From the IMG/VR virus record IMGVR_UViG_2645727608_000013: DNA of 21,625 nt; one strand, given 5' to 3'. The translations under genes and the position numbers were made by a program. The DNA comes from a virus (taxonomy: Duplodnaviria > Heunggongvirae > Uroviricota > Caudoviricetes). This document shows positions 4,106 to 21,625 of this stretch, piece after piece. Each line of letters starts with the position of its first letter. Within the stretch, counting starts at the first letter, position 1. Below the pieces are notes generated by a model. It did no database searches. It was not told the origin of the DNA and saw only the letters and a program-made list of their open reading frames with translations.

Positions 4106-4525
4106 TCGTGTTTCCGCTTCGCCGGAGCGCCTTTTCGCGCCATGTGATGAGTTCGGTCAGGCTCATGGGATACAGTTCTGATGGCGGCCAGTGAAATATC
4201 ACTGCCACATCCGCCATCAGGTCATCGACCGACAGATTTTTCGGAAACGTCACTGCACCGAGTTCGGCGACAAAAAACCGACCACCTTACCGGCCAGCGC
4301 CACAAGGTCAGGCAGTTCCAGTGCGGCGACTTCCTGCTCGGTCAGCATCGGTGCCGTCATGCGCGGCAGCACCTTAATCAGTGCATCGACTTCGGAGTTC
4401 GCGACCGCAGCCAGACTGACACCGCGCAGCGTCCCGGCACTGGGTTTCATCAGCGTGACTTGTTCGATAACCTGCTCACCACGTTTGACCGGATTGTCCA
4501 GGGTAATCACATTTTCTTTGTTCAT
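4098..4525 (-). CDS. E+E': Tail assembly chaperone E+E' made by programmed -1 ribosomal frameshift at 4271..4277
   Basis: Hand translation of the -1 frame after the TTT TTG codons gives a 57-aa extension (VAELGAVTFPKNLSVDDLMADVAVIFHWPPSELYPMSLTELITWREKALRRSGNTNE) ending at TAA 4098..4100, total 142 aa, the length of P2 E+E'; the extension overlaps the T start codon. Confidence 0.8.
4250..4525 (-). CDS. E: Tail assembly chaperone E (P2 gpE-like), zero-frame product
   Basis: 91-aa ORF ending ...GFLSPNSVQ; the slippery heptamer lies at codons 84-85; position between FII and T. Confidence 0.9.
   Translation of the reverse strand: MNKENVITLDNPVKRGEQVIEQVTLMKPSAGTLRGVSLAAVANSEVDALIKVLPRMTAPMLTEQEVAALELPDLVALAGKVVGFLSPNSVQ
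4271..4277 (-). other. Slippery heptamer T_TTT_TTG for the E to E+E' -1 frameshift
   Basis: Plus strand reads caaaaaa at 4271..4277; on the minus strand in the E frame this is GG[T TTT TTG], an X_XXY_YYZ slippery site. Confidence 0.8.
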
Positions 4526-5112: not shown

Positions 5113-6303
5113 TTAATTGCTGTTAACCGAAGTGACCAGATTTGCCAGGTATTTATCGGTAATACGCTGGCGCAGGGTCAGGTTTTCGAGAGGAGGCACC
5201 GGTGTATAGTCGTAGTCGATATACAGTTTTCCGGCCTTGAGGGTTTCCGCATCATTGGATTCTTCGCTGAACCAGCAGGTCGCATCCACGATATAGCCGT
5301 TTGTTTTCAGCTCACGGAATTTGGCATTGATGCCGTCAACGATGTCGCGAATCAGCGTTGCAGTGATGGGCTTGTCCACCGCCCACATGTGCGCCTCAGC
5401 CATCGTGTCGGCCAGCACCTGCGCGGTGCGGGTGTAGTTTTCAAAGAGGAACAGCGGGTCATCAGAGCAGGTACGGTTACCCCAGAAGCGGAAACCGTCA
5501 CGGCGAATCAGCGTTGTGACACCTGACTCGTTCAACAGGTCAGCATCGGTGCCGGACTCCTGCAAATCCCAGAAAACAGAGGCACTGATGCCGGTAACAC
5601 CGTTTACCCCGACGTTGGACAGCGTTTTATGCCAGCCCTGCTCCTGGTCGATTTTAGCGCGCAGGCCCAGCGCACGGGCGGTGGCATACGCGGTGGCGGT
5701 GGTACTGGCGACCGTATCCCATGCGAGGAAATCCGGCCAGATGACCATCAGCTCACGCTGGCTGAAATTCTGGCGGTAGGCTTTCACCTCGGAAATGGTC
5801 TTACAGCCCCATGCGCTGATATACCCGAAAGCGCGCAGCTTCTGACAGACTGATGCCAGTGCAACAGCCACCTCTTTGGTGTCCAGTCCCGGCACGCCGA
5901 GAATACGCGGTTTAACACCGGTTACTGACTCCGCCGCCAGCAGGGCTTTCAGTCCGGTGTACTGACCGTTTTCGTCGGTGGTGCCGATGATATTGGAAAC
6001 GGTCTGCGCGAGTTTCGTTTCTTCGTCTTCGCCGGTGCCGTCTTCCACACGTACGACAACGGTGACCGGTTTTGACTGGTCAGCGATGGCCTGTAACGAC
6101 GCCGCCAGCGTGCCTTTTTTACCGGCCTTTGCAATTGCGCTCTGCACATTGGTAATCAGCACCGGTTTATTGAGGGGGAAGATTTCCGCATCCGCATCGC
6201 TGGCCGTGCAGACCATGCCAACAATGGCGGTGGATACGGTGGAAATGACGCGGGTGCCGTCGTTAATCTCCTGCACCTGCACGCCGTGATGATAGTCACT
6301 CAT
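5113..6303 (-). CDS. FI: Contractile tail sheath protein (P2 gpFI-like)
   Basis: 396-aa ORF matching P2 FI; GGAG Shine-Dalgarno 8 nt upstream of the ATG (minus strand, 6312..6315). Confidence 0.9.
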   Translation of the reverse strand: MSDYHHGVQVQEINDGTRVISTVSTAIVGMVCTASDADAEIFPLNKPVLITNVQSAIAKAGKKGTLAASLQAIADQSKPVTVVVRVEDGTGEDEETKLAQTVSNIIGTTDENGQYTGLKALLAAESVTGVKPRILGVPGLDTKEVAVALASVCQKLRAFGYISAWGCKTISEVKAYRQNFSQRELMVIWPDFLAWDTVASTTATAYATARALGLRAKIDQEQGWHKTLSNVGVNGVTGISASVFWDLQESGTDADLLNESGVTTLIRRDGFRFWGNRTCSDDPLFLFENYTRTAQVLADTMAEAHMWAVDKPITATLIRDIVDGINAKFRELKTNGYIVDATCWFSEESNDAETLKAGKLYIDYDYTPVPPLENLTLRQRITDKYLANLVTSVNSN

Positions 6304-6375
6304 CCGTTTAACTCCGTGGTTAATGGGTGCAACTATTTTCTGTTGGGCAGTGCATAAGACGCTATTTGACCTGAC

Positions 6376-6393
6376 TGGTCAGTGGATGAAACA
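6376..6393 (-). promoter_or_regulatory. Candidate Ogr-type late-promoter activator site upstream of FI (TGT-N12-CCA, one mismatch to the TGT-N12-ACA dyad)
   Basis: Minus strand reads TGT-N12-CCA at 6393..6376, centred about 82 nt upstream of the FI ATG, which is about -55 if the transcript starts ~25-30 nt upstream of the ATG; P2 late promoters carry a TGT-N12-ACA element near -55 (recalled, not verified). Confidence 0.3.
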
Positions 6394-6394
6394 A

Positions 6395-6427
6395 CAGATT
6401 AAAGAAAAGGCGGGCAACTCGCCCGCC
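6395..6427 (-). terminator. Rho-independent terminator on the minus strand (GGCGGGC-GAGUU-GCCCGCC followed by UUUUCUUU)
   Basis: Perfect 7-bp GC stem at 6409..6415 / 6421..6427 with a 5-nt loop; on the minus strand it is followed by a T-rich run (plus strand 6395..6408 = cagattaaagaaaa). It sits between the AT-rich cargo segment and the FI promoter region. Confidence 0.55.
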
Positions 6428-6621
6428 CGTCCTGATTTGTACTCACTCATTTTTCAACTGACAATTTACATAGCCCAAACGCTATCAAATCTGACAGCCT
6501 ATTTTGAGCGAAAAGCAGACATTAGCATCCTTCTTATAGAAAAGGTAAACCTGCTTCTATTTGTTAATCAATAGAGAGTAAGTCACAATGGCAGATACGA
6601 ATATCGGCTGGAGAAATTAAA

Positions 6622-7704
6622 TTGAAACCAGAGCAAATGAAAAACAGGGAAGAATTAACTAGCTTTGCAACGAAACTTGCTACTCAAATCAAGATGCAAA
6701 CCAGCAGCAATTTAAATGATCTTTCTACAGCCCAAGAGAGCTCGCTATTGCCTCTAATCAATCATGCCTGGGGAGAGCAGTTTGAGGATATGAATAGGAT
6801 ATCCCAAAACTACCCTGGTCTCGACTATGTGCAACCGGGAAAGCGCTTAGGTTTGCAAATGACTGCCACTGCAAGAAAGGTTAAGTATCAGAAAACATTA
6901 GACAAACTTCGAAATAATGAGAAGTTAAAGGGTAAGTTTGACGAGATTTGGTTTTTCGTCCTCACGGCTGAACGCCTACCTGATAACGTACGTGAACACC
7001 CTGACGATTTTCAGTGCAAATATTTCACATTGTACGACCTAGTCGAAAAGGTAATGGGACAGACTTTAGAATTTCAGCGTGATTTTTTGACCCTTGCCCG
7101 GAAAGAATACTCGGATTATTTCTCTCCTGGGGACGTTGCTTTCAATCAGGGGTATTGTGTATCAGAAAACAAGCCGATCCCCTTTGACTTGAGTCTTTTC
7201 AACGCGTTAATTCATACTAATGAATGGTTTGATGATGTTGACGAAGGTGAGCAGATCGTATATGAATTTCTAGAACTTTTTAAAAATAGACTGCGTCAAT
7301 GCACTTTATCTGCTAGAAATCTTTTAAGCAAAATTATCAGTGAGATAAATATACCGAAGAGTACAAGCACGAAAATCGAGTTTCCTGAAAAGCAACTTTT
7401 CGGGCCACTAATGATTGACGATACAAACTATCAATCTTTTTCAAAAGACCTTGATGATTTGTTCGAGATGAGTCTTATTGAACGATGGGACAATTATGTT
7501 GGAATGTACTATAAGGGTGATGATGCATATATCAAAAATGAACGTATGATCAGCGTGTCATTTCCAAAGATTGAACCCGAAATGAATCTGTATGCGGCGT
7601 TATATATCTTTTATGAAAAAAATCATGATATTGCAAAACTTGTGAACGCAATTGAAAATAGTGATTTTTCTCTGCTCGCTGACAGCACTTGCCAAAATAA
7701 TTAG
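6622..7704 (+). CDS. Uncharacterised 360-aa protein occupying the P2 Z/fun hotspot; candidate anti-phage defence or exclusion gene
   Basis: Only long ORF in the ~1.65 kb between FI and G; opposite strand to the flanking late genes; visibly AT-rich against a GC-rich backbone; probable TTG start at 6622 with GGAG 8 nt upstream (first ATG at 6637); acidic, no obvious transmembrane segment, no Walker A, no clear catalytic motif. Confidence 0.75.
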   Translation: MKPEQMKNREELTSFATKLATQIKMQTSSNLNDLSTAQESSLLPLINHAWGEQFEDMNRISQNYPGLDYVQPGKRLGLQMTATARKVKYQKTLDKLRNNEKLKGKFDEIWFFVLTAERLPDNVREHPDDFQCKYFTLYDLVEKVMGQTLEFQRDFLTLARKEYSDYFSPGDVAFNQGYCVSENKPIPFDLSLFNALIHTNEWFDDVDEGEQIVYEFLELFKNRLRQCTLSARNLLSKIISEINIPKSTSTKIEFPEKQLFGPLMIDDTNYQSFSKDLDDLFEMSLIERWDNYVGMYYKGDDAYIKNERMISVSFPKIEPEMNLYAALYIFYEKNHDIAKLVNAIENSDFSLLADSTCQNN

Positions 7705-7880
7705 TTAGTAAAAGGATGCATTTATGCTCTTAGTTACTCACTCTGTTGAATTTATTTTAAGTTATTAATATAGATATGGGCTTATATATCTTTAATAGAA
7801 ATGACTAGCGTGAAAAATATGGGGCTAACTGGTCTGCCTCTCTTTTGACCAAGACAATTTGCTGGAAAACTTCCGCTCTT

Positions 7881-7920
7881 GGCACAGAGCGGACTGTCAG
7901 ATTAGACTTTACTCTGTGCC
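7881..7920. other. Imperfect hairpin (9-bp stem GGCACAGAG / CTCTGTGCC, ~22-nt loop) between the cargo ORF and G; weak candidate terminator
   Basis: Inverted repeat at 7881..7889 and 7912..7920; no strong T-run on either side, so terminator function is uncertain. Confidence 0.25.
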
Positions 7921-7955
7921 ATAGATATGTAAGCTCCCACCAGAGCTCATACAAC

Positions 7956-8483
7956 TTACTGCGGCATTTCCGGCCATTCAGGATTTGCAGGATCCACACG
8001 GCTGACCAGAACACTGTAGCGTTCCCATGCCTCCAGTCGACTGCGCTCCTCATCTGTTGCCATATTCAGCCTGACAGCGCGCTCCAGCGGCAAAATCACG
8101 GATTCAGCTTCGGAAAGTAAAGTTGCCTTTTGTGATTCTGCCAGTTGCTGCTGTTCGTCTGCCGTATAAATCCGCTTAATCACGGCACCATCCTTAAACA
8201 TCCATTTACCTGAGTCATCAGCACGTCGGTTTGCGGTAATATCAGGAACCTCAACAACGCTAAAACCTTCAGGGTTAAGCGTTGAAGCATCTCTGGTGAT
8301 GCCGACAATTATATTATTCTCGTCGTAAACAATCTTTATCGTGTCTTCCTGAAAATTACTTACTTCCTCATACCATTTTTTTCCGTCTTCAGACCATAAC
8401 CAGATAACATCAAAATTTTTTGTCAGTTGATATTGGGCAACAGTTTTGGGATTACCCGCAGTAATATTTTTTAAATGCTGCAT
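7956..8483 (-). CDS. G: Tail fibre assembly chaperone (P2 gpG-like)
   Basis: 175-aa ORF, same length as P2 gpG; immediately downstream of H. Confidence 0.85.
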
Positions 8484-13003: not shown

Positions 13004-13069
13004 AACGGGAAGGATGCCGCCGGGTCATACCGGCGGCAATGTGACGATGAGGTGTCGGGAATGGCACAA

Positions 13070-16536: not shown

Positions 16537-17280
16537 TTAACTGGCTTTCTTTTTCGGGCGTCCACGTTTTGCCGGTGTCACGCTCCGTGTCTTACGCGGG
16601 GCGCGGGTGACCGCTTTGGGCTGCGGCTCCGGCTTCGGTTTCAGCTCCCGCTCCAGTCGTTCAATCTCTTTTTTGACGCCTGCCTGACAGTCGAGCTGTG
16701 TCGCACGTTGCAGGTGCGCCAGCGCACCGGCGGCATCACCAGCGTCACGCAGAAACAGACCGGTGATTTTGTGCAGCTTTGCGCGCACTTCATCAGGCAT
16801 GTCAGCCGTGGCGGTCAGTTCGAGGGTCTCCGTCAGCAGGCGGGTATCCACAGACTCACCGGCAGCGTGAGCACGCATGGCCGCGAGCGCCACCTCCTCG
16901 GTGAACATGTACGGCGGGGTGCGGCGGTGTTTACCCGGCATGGTCAGACCGTACTTCAGGGCGTAACGGGCAATCTCCAGCGCACCGGCAATATCGCCGG
17001 TATCCAGACGCCACAGCATGACCGTCATCAGAATGTCATCCTGTGCGCCTTTGCCCTGCTCCAGCACGCCGTTCACCCACGGCAACCAGAACGGCAGCAG
17101 TTCGCGCTTTTTCGCGGCCTTCAGCTCTTTTGAATAAATCGTTTTCAGTGTGCGCTGGTCTGCGGCGAGCTTAACCAGCATCTGCTCATAGACAGTTGCA
17201 TGTCGCAGCGGGGCGGCTTCCCGCTGCGCGGTCATCGCTGCCGAGACCCGCATCATGTGGCGCTGTGCGGGACTCGTCAT
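16537..17280 (-). CDS. M: Terminase small (endonuclease) subunit M (P2 gpM-like)
   Basis: 247-aa ORF matching P2 gpM in length, with a basic C-terminal tail; downstream of N. Confidence 0.85.
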   Translation of the reverse strand: MTSPAQRHMMRVSAAMTAQREAAPLRHATVYEQMLVKLAADQRTLKTIYSKELKAAKKRELLPFWLPWVNGVLEQGKGAQDDILMTVMLWRLDTGDIAGALEIARYALKYGLTMPGKHRRTPPYMFTEEVALAAMRAHAAGESVDTRLLTETLELTATADMPDEVRAKLHKITGLFLRDAGDAAGALAHLQRATQLDCQAGVKKEIERLERELKPKPEPQPKAVTRAPRKTRSVTPAKRGRPKKKAS

Positions 17281-17283
17281 CGG

Positions 17284-18357
17284 TTACGCTCCCGGCTCTG
17301 CGGTCGCTTTAGCCGGTGTGGAGAAGTCACCGACCTTGATTTTTTCCACCAGACAACCGGCGGCGTAGTCTTCCACCACGTAATCAATGTTCATTGACTC
17401 GTAGTTCTCCACGCGGTCGAGTTTCGGGTTTTCCACAATCACGCGGCGATGGCTGTCATCCATGTAGTAGATGGACAGGTTTTTCAGCTTCGTGATGAGC
17501 ATCGCATCCGCCGGGAAGTACGGGACGCGTACCGCCGGCAGGTTACCGATGCGTTTCTGGCTGATGATGACGTCAGCGGCCAGCATTTCGCTGTTGTCCT
17601 GCTCCTTGTTGACGATGGGGAAATACTTGTCCGCCAGTAGCTGACGCCCCACAATCACCACAAGGTCAGGGTCTTCCTGATACCACGGTTCAATCAGGTT
17701 GTTGGTCGCATCCATCACCAGTGCATCGAGGCTGGCATAATCACCGCCCTTGCCCACGCGGATAACCTCAGAGGTGGTGCGGCCTTCCTCGTCAGTGACC
17801 TTGCTCATCACGCGCGCCGGGGCTTCATTGCGGTATTTCTGCAGCCAGCCGACCGCCACATCCTGCAGCATCGGATTGCTGCTGCGGTCAGAGGTTTCGG
17901 CACGCTTCACGCCGTTAAAACCGGCCATGATGAAATCAAGGGACTGGCGTTTGATAATGGCGTTACGGACACGGAGCTGGAAATCCTGATAACGCGCCCA
18001 CAGGTCCAGCGTTTTGTAGCGGATATAAAAATCGAAGTTAATCTGGTCGCATTCGTACTTGTTAGACGCCAGCTTCGAGAAGTCCTTCGGCTGACGCTCG
18101 GTGCCACCGGCGGTGTCGGTGGTGCTGGCGATGGAGCCGGTGACACCGATGCCAATTTTTTCCCCTTTCATTTCGCTGACCGGCACAATATTGATGCGGG
18201 TCAGAAAGTCAGAGGACTCCTGCATGGTGTTCATCAGGGTCTGGGTGACCGACGGTTCAACGGTGAATTTTTTCGACACATCACCGGCGTCGATGCCGTT
18301 CAGTTCGGCAACACGGGACAGGTAGGCATTAAATTTAAAGCGGGTTTCCTGGCGCAT
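17284..18357 (-). CDS. N: Major capsid protein N (P2 gpN-like)
   Basis: 357-aa ORF matching P2 gpN in length; between O and M. Confidence 0.9.
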   Translation of the reverse strand: MRQETRFKFNAYLSRVAELNGIDAGDVSKKFTVEPSVTQTLMNTMQESSDFLTRINIVPVSEMKGEKIGIGVTGSIASTTDTAGGTERQPKDFSKLASNKYECDQINFDFYIRYKTLDLWARYQDFQLRVRNAIIKRQSLDFIMAGFNGVKRAETSDRSSNPMLQDVAVGWLQKYRNEAPARVMSKVTDEEGRTTSEVIRVGKGGDYASLDALVMDATNNLIEPWYQEDPDLVVIVGRQLLADKYFPIVNKEQDNSEMLAADVIISQKRIGNLPAVRVPYFPADAMLITKLKNLSIYYMDDSHRRVIVENPKLDRVENYESMNIDYVVEDYAAGCLVEKIKVGDFSTPAKATAEPGA

Positions 18358-18415: not shown

Positions 18416-19237
18416 TCAGCAGTTCGTCATCAGGGCATCACCGCCACCGCCGGTGGCCTTGCTGCGGCGCTGCTGGGTCAGACTTTCGGTGCTGTCGAGA
18501 CTGTTTTTCAGGCGGGTGAATGCCTGGCTGGTTTCATCCGCCCTGTCAGTCACATCCTGCTTAAGTGCGGAAAAAGCGGTTTCCATCTCAGCGAGGCGCT
18601 GCTCAGTGGCACTCAGTTTTTCCTGCACATGTTCAGCAACAGCGGTCACCGCTTCATGCACATCATTCAGACGGGCGTCATCGCTGGCCTGTTTGCGGCT
18701 AAAAATGGATTTCACCTTTTCGGTCAGGGCGGTGAACACGGTTTCAGGCAGGTCTTCAAATTCCAGCTCAACAGGCGTTGCCACTGAAATCAGGTTTTCA
18801 GGGCTTAATTTGAAGCGGTTCAGGGGGTTGTGTTTTGCCGTGCGGCAGAATTCCAGGTATTCCGTGCCGAGGCTTGCCGGGTCATCGGTGACGGCCAGCC
18901 CCACCAGATAACATTTGCCGGTGTTGGCAAAGTTCGGCTGAATTTCCATTGAGGTGTAGACCTTCTGCGCGGCCTTGTTCATCGCGATAAGGTCATCGGT
19001 CGGGGTGATTTTCGCAAACAGCGCCCATTTGCCTTTCAGCGCCGAATCATCGTCAATCTTTTCGGCCTTCAGTTCGACCACATCGCCATAACGCTTAAAA
19101 ATACCGTCAGGCAGGATGCCGCGCAGATGTTCCAGGTTAATGCGGCAACCATAGACTCGCGGGTCAAAGGTTTCGGCCATTTCCTGAATATCCTGCGCAC
19201 TGATGACACGCCCGTCACAGGTGTCACCCTCAACGCC
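18416..19237 (-). pseudogene. O: Capsid scaffold gene O, 5'-truncated by IS insertion (about the first 10 codons of P2 gpO missing on this side)
   Basis: The frame stays open upstream of the track's internal start (19180) and encodes AGVEGDTCDGRVISAQDIQEMAETFDP..., matching residues ~11 onward of P2 gpO (284 aa) as I remember them; similarity stops near 19237/19238 where the IS terminal repeats begin; in-frame TAA at 19244..19246. Confidence 0.7.
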
Positions 19238-19246
19238 TGCGTATTA

Positions 19247-19322
19247 CCGTGAAGGAGATCGGTGAGTAACATCGATGGAGATCGGTTCGTGTCACTTTCA
19301 CAGAACCGTTTTTAAATTACCT
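19247..19322. repeat. IS21-family terminal repeat region (multiple short direct and inverted repeats, probable IstA binding sites)
   Basis: GGAGATCGGT at 19254..19263 and 19276..19285; the inverted copy GATCTCCTTCGG at 19309..19320; the minus-strand IS terminus ends ...ACGCA at 19238. Confidence 0.5.
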
Positions 19323-20072
19323 TCACTGATCTCCTTCGGTCAACGGAGATTGTATTTTCCGCATTGATTCTCCTTTAAGTTCGATCTTGATACTGCCATG
19401 AACCAGTCGATCTAGGATGGCATCCGCATGTGTGGAGTCTCCGATCATTTTGTACCAGTTTTCCACCGGCAACTGGCTCACTACGATGATTGAGCCTCGT
19501 TGGTACATCAGATCCACTATTTCCAGCAGGTCGCTACGCTGTTCTGATGAGAGAGGTTCCAGCCCCCAGTCATCCAGAAGCAGCAGATCGCTATTATTCA
19601 GCCTGGTCAAAAGTTTGCTGTATCTTCCATCAGCATGCCCCTGATAGCACTGTTCCATCAGCGCTTTAAGGCGATAATAGTAGACCTTGTATCCCTGTCG
19701 GCAGGCATTATGACCAAGTGCACATGCCAGGAACGTTTTACCGCTGCCGGTGGCCCCGGTCAGTAAAATATTTTGTTTCAGGGTTAACCAGTTTCCCTGA
19801 CTGAGTGAACGGATGAGGGCCCTGTCCAGCCCTCTATTGTTACGATAATCCAGCTTTGATAACTCAGCATTAAGTCTGAACCGTGCATGTTTGATCAGAC
19901 GCTCTGCCTTCCTGTTTTCACGGCAGGTTAGTTCTTCTGCTGTCAGTAATGACAGGCGTTCTTCGAAGCCCAGCTCCTGGTATGTGCCCGGTTGAGCAAG
20001 TTGCTTTTTAAGCGCATCACGGAAGCCGGTGAGTTTAAGTGCGGTCAGTTGTTCGTAAAGATGATTCATCAT
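19323..20072 (-). CDS. istB: IS21-family transposition helper ATPase IstB
   Basis: 249-aa ORF with Walker A (GATGSGKT) and Walker B (LLLLDDWG) motifs; directly downstream of istA. Confidence 0.9.
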   Translation of the reverse strand: MMNHLYEQLTALKLTGFRDALKKQLAQPGTYQELGFEERLSLLTAEELTCRENRKAERLIKHARFRLNAELSKLDYRNNRGLDRALIRSLSQGNWLTLKQNILLTGATGSGKTFLACALGHNACRQGYKVYYYRLKALMEQCYQGHADGRYSKLLTRLNNSDLLLLDDWGLEPLSSEQRSDLLEIVDLMYQRGSIIVVSQLPVENWYKMIGDSTHADAILDRLVHGSIKIELKGESMRKIQSPLTEGDQ

Positions 20073-20083
20073 TGGATCCCGTA

Positions 20084-21625
20084 TCAGTGGTAATACTCAC
20101 TGCCGCGTACGTTTTCGTGTTCCATCGTGGATAACAGATCTGGTTTTGGATCCTGAACAGGTTGTTTATCCAGACCTTTTTCCAGGATCGATTTAATACC
20201 TGACAGACGCCATACCTTTGTTTTCAGAGCTCTTGCACATGCTGCATTAAGTCTGGCTTTACTGTATTTTTTATGAAGGTTCAGGAGTCCAAGGCAGAAG
20301 CGATAGCTTTGTTCCGGATGTGGACGAGAGTTCAGTATATGAAGCACATAACTATGAGTTTCACTGCCTATGTGCCCCGCCCATTCCAGAAGACGCTCTG
20401 GCGTCCAGGTGGCATGCTGTCGATGAGCTTCAGGCATGTGCTCGTTGCGGGTACTGTAGCCATAAGTACGCTTGCGCGGGTGCACAGCAACCTCCTGCCC
20501 CTGATTGAAGAGTCTTACCAGTTCTCCGGAGATCCATGCTTCCAGTTGCTGGCCTAACAGCGAACATGGAACCGAGTAGTAATGTTTGTCGATTTCCACG
20601 TGGTAATCGGCATGAACTCTGACTTTCTTCACCAGGGTGTAACTGTAACTGGCTTCAGGAAGAGGCTTCAGTGCGGGTTTATCAAGCTGGATGAAGAGTT
20701 CTGCACGTGAATAACCCAACTTCTGCATTATTTTGTTATTCAGTCTTTCCAGCAACTCCCGAATGCGCTGATTAAGCGATGCAAGGCTGTAGAAGATCTC
20801 ATGCCTGATTCGGGCCATGATCCAGCGTTCAACAACCTGAACGCCAACTTCAGCTTTGGCTTTATCTTTCGGTTTACGTGGCCGCGCAGGCAAAACTGCG
20901 ACATTATAATGCTCAAGCATCTGCTGGTAGGTAGGGTTAACGTCAGGATCATACTTACATGCCCTGGATGTGGCGCTTTTCAGATTGTCCGGAACAACAA
21001 GTTCAGGAACGCCACCCAACCACTGGAAGCAGCGAACATGACTCATCACCCAGTCTTCAAGCTGCTGAGACCAGGTGGCCTCTGCCCATGTGTAACTTGA
21101 TGCCCCGAGAACAGCTACGATGACCTGAGCAGTTCTTATTTCTCCGGTCTCAGGGTCGGTAACGCCAACGGTAGGTCCACAGTAATCAACGAAAAGTTTT
21201 TCGCCAGCTTTATGTACCTGACGCATTGATGGTGAAGTGGTTTTGAGCCATTCACGGTACATCCGGCAGTAATGGTTATAGCTGTAAAAACCGCCTGGAT
21301 TACGCTCACAGTATTCTTCCCAGAGTAGCTGCAGCGTCACGCATTTATTACGCAGTTCCCGGTGTACTGTAGCCCAGTCAGGCAGAGAGTGCTTCTTCAT
21401 CTTAACCTGGGTCTGAAGGAACGCATGTTTTAGTTTTGTATCATCCCATCCTGTAGGTAAGGGCCACTGCTTTATGCCAAGTTGAGCCGCCCGATTAGCA
21501 TATCTGGATACAACGGAAGGGGAGATTGCAAGACTACGACCAATTTGTCGATGGCTGAGTCCAACACCGTATTTAAGCCTAAGAATTTCTTTAAGTTTTC
21601 TCATAGAAATTGGAACTGTTGGCAT
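20084..21625 (-). CDS. istA: IS21-family transposase IstA (N-terminal HTH, DDE catalytic core)
   Basis: 513-aa ORF whose start ATG is at the window edge (21623..21625); N-terminal helix-turn-helix-like region followed by a large integrase-like core; paired with istB. Confidence 0.85.
   Translation of the reverse strand: MPTVPISMRKLKEILRLKYGVGLSHRQIGRSLAISPSVVSRYANRAAQLGIKQWPLPTGWDDTKLKHAFLQTQVKMKKHSLPDWATVHRELRNKCVTLQLLWEEYCERNPGGFYSYNHYCRMYREWLKTTSPSMRQVHKAGEKLFVDYCGPTVGVTDPETGEIRTAQVIVAVLGASSYTWAEATWSQQLEDWVMSHVRCFQWLGGVPELVVPDNLKSATSRACKYDPDVNPTYQQMLEHYNVAVLPARPRKPKDKAKAEVGVQVVERWIMARIRHEIFYSLASLNQRIRELLERLNNKIMQKLGYSRAELFIQLDKPALKPLPEASYSYTLVKKVRVHADYHVEIDKHYYSVPCSLLGQQLEAWISGELVRLFNQGQEVAVHPRKRTYGYSTRNEHMPEAHRQHATWTPERLLEWAGHIGSETHSYVLHILNSRPHPEQSYRFCLGLLNLHKKYSKARLNAACARALKTKVWRLSGIKSILEKGLDKQPVQDPKPDLLSTMEHENVRGSEYYH

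Follow-up and report, generated by a model that had tools for sequence, protein, structure and literature searches.

The 21,625-nt stretch of DNA analyzed here (the window, 21.6 kb) comes from a P2-type (Peduovirus) prophage and covers its late region, in which the late genes are encoded on the minus strand. The gene order is D (1-1164), U, T, E/E', FII and FI (5113-6303), followed by a plus-strand ORF of low G+C content (6622-7704), then by G (7956-8483), H, I, J, W and V, and past V by the lysis and head genes as far as O. The interval between G and FI, which contains the opposite-strand ORF, a predicted terminator and the activator site of the late promoter PF, is the subject of this analysis. 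Its features are as follows.

5113..6303, minus strand: FI, encoding the tail sheath and heading the F operon (Pfam matches: Phage_sheath_1, sheath C-terminal domain)
6327..6329, minus strand: inferred transcription start of PF, placed from P2 spacing alone, 24-26 nt upstream of the FI ATG
~6372..6400, minus strand: equivalent of the 29-nt site annotated in P2, by homology
6393..6376, minus strand: Ogr-type activator site of PF, TGT-N12-CCA, by positional homology to P2
6407..6398, minus strand: U-tract of the predicted terminator, UUUUCUUUAA, beginning at the first base past the stem
6408..6428, minus strand: stem-loop of the predicted terminator, with GGCGGGC (6427..6421), loop GAGUU (6420..6416) and GCCCGCC (6415..6409)
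6438..6520, no strand assigned: cargo-cassette A-end, an imperfect inverted repeat of 83 nt at the cassette terminus, conserved before different cargos and also found on plasmids
6622..7704, plus strand: cargo gene, 360 aa, TTG start (Pfam SMEK_N, 1.6e-19; RefSeq 'SMEK domain-containing protein')
7871..7953, no strand assigned: cargo-cassette B-end, matching the A-end in inverted orientation and including hairpins 7920..7881 and 7892..7871
7956..8483, minus strand: G, tail-fibre assembly, last gene of the V operon (Pfam Caudo_TAP, 9e-35; synteny with P2 G)

The locus is closely related to known phages. The FI protein is 98-100% identical to peduovirus FI, and the 251 nt around the terminator and activator site are 92-99% identical to many sequenced peduoviruses. 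Over the same 251 nt, identity to phages vB_EcoM-12474II-V reaches 98.8%, and the same cargo gene is present in those phages. An identical G-FI cassette was also found in E. coli O145:H28 chromosomes, and at least 80% of the cassette is present in 21 of 5,426 complete genomes. The window begins inside D, so the position of ogr would lie beyond it; in a prophage with an identical cassette, ogrK directly follows D.

At its other end, the window contains an IS21-family element (19238-21625), with IstB at 19323-20072 and IstA starting at 20084 and running past the window end. The insertion point is 33 nt into the capsid-scaffold gene O, and homology to an intact prophage ends at 19237. The element cuts O off from its neighbours on that side, namely the promoter region PO/PP and genes P and Q. 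Because it interrupts gene O, this copy of the prophage is probably defective and would not complete its own lytic cycle. A separate observation concerns the S-V spacer, which in the window is only 66 nt long (13004-13069). Locus L120 is an O145:H28 prophage whose G-FI cassette is identical to that of the window; between its V and S lies a 786-nt opposite-strand ORF (23575-24360) that is absent from the window, and this spacer may be a further variable site of the late region.

The predicted terminator and the PF activator site

An intrinsic terminator is expected to combine a G+C-rich stem of 5-14 bp, a short loop and an adjoining U-rich tract. The minus-strand hairpin at 6408..6428 has all three: its stem comprises 7 G-C/C-G pairs with an optional eighth, outer G-U pair at 6428/6408, its loop is 5 nt long, and its U-tract is conserved as TTTTCTTTA, with T7-8 in distant relatives. 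The 19-nt hairpin has a predicted dG of -14.9 kcal/mol, and its 61-nt context (z = -3.3) is more stable than 199 of 200 shuffles. A terminator is also expected to follow closely on a gene of the same strand. Such a gene stands just upstream in six cargo-free relatives (see below), and the distance of 1.5 kb in the window is owed to the cassette.

Terminators were sought across both strands of the whole window. A first, permissive scan, with cut-offs of dG <= -7 and five or more T in 8, returned many weak intra-ORF matches and was replaced by a d-score scan, for which the formula of d'Aubenton-Carafa et al. 1990 was used with modern energy parameters, so that absolute values are approximate. 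The sole clear match was 6398..6428 (d = +35.6, T-tract score 4.2), and the one remaining match was 4297..4278 (d = +3.1). The hairpin at 6408..6428 is, on these predictions, a strong minus-strand intrinsic terminator. As for the weak hairpin at 4278-4297, it lies inside gene E, also on the minus strand, and is followed by TTTTTTG. In P2, this position is annotated as the -1 frameshift site of E/E', and the hairpin is probably the frameshift signal rather than a terminator.

An initial annotation of this DNA had described a minus-strand GC hairpin with a U-run at 6395..6427, a TGT-N12-CCA element next to it at 6376..6393, at the FI promoter, and a plus-strand cargo gene between G and the terminator. 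The hairpin coordinates proved essentially right, and the element is the homologue of the annotated PF site of P2. The cargo likewise lies where it had been placed, at 6622..7704, between G (from 7956) and the stem (up to 6428).

To place the hairpin among relatives, 80 related loci were collected through the FI protein, and the G stop codon and FI start were located in each. Six of these loci are cargo-free (L018, L022, L062, L073, L074 and L084), with a G-FI spacer of 128-132 nt. In all six, the hairpin begins 4-6 nt past the G stop codon and takes the form AGGCGGGC-NNATT-GCCCGCCT followed by TTTCTTTA. Distant relatives, in which FI is 86-90% identical, exhibit a different G+C-rich hairpin and then T7-8 at the equivalent place. 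When 28 distinct relatives were aligned, 95% of the cells of the 8-bp stem were paired, compared with 37-61% when the 3' partner was slid as a control. Compensatory changes from G-C to A-U were observed at 2 pairs, with 8 cells altered on both sides and with G-U intermediates present; the sampled relatives are mostly 95-100% identical in FI, and this covariation support is real but shallow. Because the hairpin follows G in cargo-free phages and its stem has been kept by compensatory changes, comparative analysis identifies it as the predicted ancestral, backbone-encoded terminator of the V-W-J-I-H-G operon.

In phages with an occupied site, the hairpin keeps a constant distance to FI (-129 relative to the ATG), whereas its distance to the G stop codon is increased by 1.1-4.4 kb of variable sequence. 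It scores d > 0 in 30 of 35 occupied cassette classes, always at -129 and irrespective of the cargo, and in 29 of those 30 no other late-sense terminator scores above zero. This retention suggests that the hairpin is still in use. Since it predates the cargo and lies outside the inverted ends of the cassette, it would not have been placed there on the cargo's account.

The hairpin could also be viewed as part of the cargo cassette, either terminating the cassette's transcripts or forming the 3' end of a small RNA for which the conserved 100 nt upstream would code. About 100 nt (6430..6520) are indeed conserved in many phages with differing cargos, and where the cargo is same-sense, as with Wphi orf44, the nearest terminator is this hairpin. 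However, it is present in cargo-free phages too, and the conserved 100 nt correspond to the A-end repeat, which ends 9 nt before the stem. Moreover, a Sigma-70 promoter scan of these 100 nt returned no site at the tool threshold, and an Rfam search of 6200..8100 and of a plasmid copy of the cassette end gave no match at E <= 1. We consider it highly improbable that the hairpin belongs to the cassette, and it is treated below as the V-operon terminator.

Not every relative has a strong hairpin at this position. Four classes, P2 among them, exhibit a weakened or degenerate hairpin before PF, and in one group of close relatives (L014-L016, L030, L043, L047, L050, L059 and L065) it is absent altogether. 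Because of these relatives and of the four classes, a terminator before PF does not appear to be strictly required. The relatives without a hairpin are further distinguished by a late-sense gene for a Hin/Gin-type DNA invertase upstream of FI, the stop codon of which adjoins the PF activator site.

Late promoters of the P2 type are characterized by an activator-site consensus with partial dyad symmetry, TGT-N12-ACA, centred near -55. The TGT-N12-CCA at 6393..6376 is centred at ~-56 relative to the inferred PF start and departs from the consensus once, exactly as the annotated PF site of P2 does. It aligns base for base with NC_001895 17555-17583 ('activator binding site; activation of pF promoter'), which is also TGT-N12-CCA. 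Of 66 distinct FI upstream sequences, 65 contain TGT-N12-(A/C)CA at -89 to -91 relative to the start codon of FI, with at least 10 different spacers. The bare motif TGT-N12-MCA shows no enrichment across the window (17 matches vs 24.6 expected), and for this reason the case for the site is argued from homology. By that homology, the site at 6376..6393 is a genuine PF activator site. Insulation of PF by the adjacent hairpin is plausible, and because the invertase relatives lack the hairpin, it would be useful at most and not indispensable.

The cargo cassette and its ends

The cassette occupies 6438..7953 (1,516 bp), with its insertion point falling precisely between the stop codon of G and the terminator, and contains a single gene, on the plus strand. 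Its G+C content is 27-44%, compared with 50-60% in the flanks. The outer terminus of the A-end (5'-TGTAC on the plus strand) is 9 nt from the terminator stem, and that of the B-end is 2 nt from the G stop codon. Both ends begin with 5'-TGTA, their outer start being TGTATTAGCTCAGAC, and finish with ...GAGCGGA(C/A) beside the cargo. They contain repeated CTGACAG motifs and an inner palindrome, GTCYGCT...AGCGGAC.

The cargo had been called a defence gene. This label derives only from the SMEK_N domain and from a PADLOC match limited to the N-terminal 112 residues, and a defence role is unproven. A candidate cargo promoter inside the cassette, TTGTTA(6561-6566)-17-CACAAT(6584-6589), was recognized by eye and has 8/12 matches.

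Among the 80 loci, approximately 35 classes of cassette and 50 families of cargo ORF can be distinguished, a diversity between otherwise near-identical phages that identifies the site as the Z/fun hotspot. With respect to the late genes, 30 of the cargo families are in the same sense and 20 in the opposite sense. Inversion of the cassette between its ends was considered as the source of this mixed orientation and rejected, since within this sample each family was seen in one orientation only.

The cassette ends also occur outside phages. Their core, AATCTGACAGTCYGCTYTG, was detected in 32 genome contigs, although the 19-nt core scan is partly chance (~17 random matches estimated for the 32), and only hits sharing the extended ~80-nt element were used. 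About 20 of these contigs, mostly from Enterobacterales, contain the whole ~80-nt end with P2 tail genes absent nearby, and 67 plasmids carry the end sequence. On two plasmids, L121 and L122 (Klebsiella, Yersinia), inverted A- and B-ends flank unrelated cargos of one or two genes (L121, 2828-3562; L122, 20044-23331 and 27811-28911). Perfect 7-bp target duplications were observed for two of these three copies (GCTAAGG and TATTAGC). The flanks of the window cassette match at 4 of 7 bases (AGTAAGT vs AATCAGG), making its duplication degenerate.

A search for a cognate transposase with matching ends found none; only one partial IstA fragment lies near an element, in L098. The IS21 element of the window was also considered as the origin of the cassette ends and rejected, as its terminus (TGAAGGAGATCGG...) is unrelated. 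The ends look as if they define a family of transposase-less cargo cassettes, whose mobility we infer from their distribution alone.

A second class of junction was also observed, in which the end sequence breaks off at ...CTGCTTTGAGC and continues as TGTGAGTTCAAC... This junction occurs in L119 at 6001-7699 (K. quasipneumoniae plasmid NZ_CP034130) and in L085, L092, L094, L107, L109 and L116. In L119, the IS110-family element ISEsa2 is inserted in the end sequence, with its transposase gene ~390 nt downstream of the junction. This suggests that an IS110-family element inserts specifically into the cassette end.

Hairpins were also noted near the cassette ends themselves. A cassette end lies within ~10 nt of a hairpin resembling an intrinsic terminator both in the window (6408-6437) and in L122 (~19960-20000; ACCCGCGAAAGCGGGTTTTTT), and in L121, beyond 3562, a hairpin preceded by an A-run lies ~30 nt from the cassette end. 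In these three cases, the hairpins could reflect a target preference or merely tolerated insertion sites.

Late transcription across the cargo

In a cargo-free ancestor, the terminator a few bases past the G stop codon would be expected to end V-operon transcription ~5-10 nt before the Ogr/Delta-type site of PF. The F operon would thereby be kept as a separate, activator-dependent unit. A cassette landing past the G stop codon and ahead of the terminator would then leave the latter 1.5 kb downstream of G. The hairpin and U-run at 6398..6428 are thus very probably the Rho-independent terminator of the V-W-J-I-H-G operon, displaced from G by the cassette. Late transcripts that escape Rho and the cassette-end hairpins would run antisense through the cargo and stop at 6398..6407. 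With the hotspot cassette located ahead of the tail-fibre operon terminator, late read-through over the cargo would be the default expectation in most relatives.

Read-through depends on what lies between G and the cargo. On the late-sense strand, no other intrinsic terminator is predicted from the G stop codon (7956) to 6427. Three stable hairpins are found just past G (7951..7871), and with d = -36 to -70 they score as non-terminators. The weak hairpin described at 7881..7920 in the initial annotation exists; it belongs to the B-end, has no U-tract and scores d = -70. The anatomy as first described is therefore correct, and sequence comparison indicates that it is general among relatives.

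Nevertheless, V-operon transcripts could end soon after G, at the cassette-end hairpins (7951..7871) or through Rho, in which case 6408..6428 would be a rarely used backstop and little antisense RNA would be made. The 101-nt stretch after G folds at -38 kcal/mol (z = -3.8), and in the window hairpin B is followed by AGUUUUCC. In addition, the 1.5-kb antisense stretch is untranslated and includes several segments in which C exceeds G (C/G up to 2.7), making Rho-dependent termination plausible. However, all three hairpins fall far below the terminator threshold, and across cassettes the sequence past the post-G hairpins is neither conserved nor T-rich, with no conserved U-tract. The strong terminal hairpin, for its part, has been kept in 30 of 35 classes. 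An early end is a possibility of some substance, toward which we do not lean.

As to a function for read-through, the initial annotation had proposed that late antisense transcripts from the V operon could shut off the defence gene during the lytic cycle, with the terminator bounding the RNA and insulating PF; the proposal is taken here as that of a selected function. Several observations are consistent with this proposal. The interval from G to the cargo is free of predicted intrinsic terminators not only here but in 10 of the 11 classes in which cargo is entirely opposite in orientation, the exception being P2, and the hairpins just past G lack U-tracts. An orientation opposite to the lytic genes is also a recognized theme for accessory genes; such loci are typically oriented in this way (PMC7067206), and the same hotspot provides an example (PMC3573123).

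The mixed orientation of the cargos argues against selection for antisense shut-off. Cis-antisense control is expected to produce an orientation bias, but with 30 same-sense and 20 opposite families the antisense arrangement is not favored, and for same-sense cargos, the larger group, the effect of read-through would be induction, not silencing. Furthermore, the terminator is ancestral and outside the cassette, the antisense RNA may be ended early by Rho at its C-rich segments, the defence role of the cargo is unproven, and the prophage of the window is disrupted by IS21. P2, moreover, stops read-through by an internal terminator. Selected shut-off is unlikely in our judgment: the regulatory meaning of read-through is unproven, and any damping of the cargo gene would be a by-product of where the cassette landed rather than an evolved switch.

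The arrangement in P2 differs from that of its relatives. The 'putative rho-independent terminator for V operon' annotated at NC_001895 15639-15666 scores d = +7 over the annotated stretch and +18 when rescanned, and because it sits between G and the cargo, the P2 cargo would be shielded from late read-through. The pre-PF hairpin of P2 has decayed, its 5' arm being lost (GGGCAGGTGAGCG; d = -67; L004 2246-2270, NC_001895 ~17245-17269). The presence of an internal terminator together with a decayed pre-PF hairpin fits a need for one functional terminator per operon end. In most cassette types, other terminators are predicted in neither direction, and a convincing terminator on the cargo-sense strand was found in none of the 35 cassette classes. 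By these comparisons P2, the reference phage, is atypical and not representative of the locus.

A broader interpretation can be formulated. Transposase-less cassettes with 83-nt ends and 7-bp duplications, shared with enterobacterial plasmids and lodged in the 3' untranslated part of the V operon, upstream of its terminator, might wire every cargo to the phage cycle, such that same-sense cargos are co-induced and opposite-sense cargos are silenced by obligatory antisense read-through. If this were true, prophage defence or toxicity genes of opposite sense would be switched off when the phage turns lytic. We regard this interpretation as speculative and doubtful.

Nilsson et al. (2004, Mol Biol Evol 21:1) probably described the borders of this hotspot, and theirs is probably the closest prior description. 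The G-FI site is known as the Z/fun hotspot or 'moron position 2' (bioRxiv 10.1101/2024.10.15.618418; PMC3573123) and has been located 'within the tail genes' (PMC13586616). The literature searched on the hotspot made no mention of terminators or antisense transcription at the G-FI site, and a literature search for P2 transcriptome or antisense data returned nothing relevant. The feature originally flagged is a conventional terminator beside a known promoter element. What is new, the position of the hotspot cassette upstream of the tail-fibre operon terminator, is a modest architectural detail. It has practical relevance nonetheless: the Z/fun hotspot is mined for anti-phage systems, and the cargo is usually cloned 'with native promoter'. 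A cargo placed between the last tail-fibre gene and the operon's only strong terminator leads to a testable expectation for its expression in lysogeny and in the lytic cycle. The plasmid-shared cassette ends, in turn, offer a handle on gene acquisition by the hotspot.

The features of this locus can be compared with four known systems. The PF region resembles that of P2 (NC_001895 17555-17583; start 17626-17628) in its position upstream of FI, its half-sites and its spacing to the FI ATG, and the downstream promoter and leader are almost identical. It differs in the 12-nt spacer, which is TTCATCCACTGA in the window and GCTGTCGATTAG in P2; the window spacer is a common allele among relatives. 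The terminator has the same proposed job as the V-operon terminator of P2, namely ending V-W-J-I-H-G transcription before the F operon, but the P2 hairpin is non-homologous and lies inside the fun(Z) cassette, between G and the cargo.

Mobile insertion cassettes and non-autonomous transposons with cargo form another such system, an example being MIC231 with its IS231 ends. The window and plasmid cassettes share with them long inverted ends starting from 5'-TG, one to few passenger genes and the absence of a transposase, whereas no cognate transposase has been identified for the present cassette and the target duplication of the phage copy is degenerate. Morons of temperate phages are described as promoter-gene-terminator units that have entered the late gene clusters between one gene and the next (Juhala et al. 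2000, cited by PMC3573123). An opposite-strand moron between G and FI has been reported, neaT in CFT073 (PMC3573123). The cargo of the window differs in having no predicted terminator on its own strand and in having 83-nt inverted repeats as its borders, in place of a promoter and a terminator. It nevertheless resembles a moron, as a low-G+C accessory gene located between G and FI on the strand opposite to the tail genes, as neaT is.
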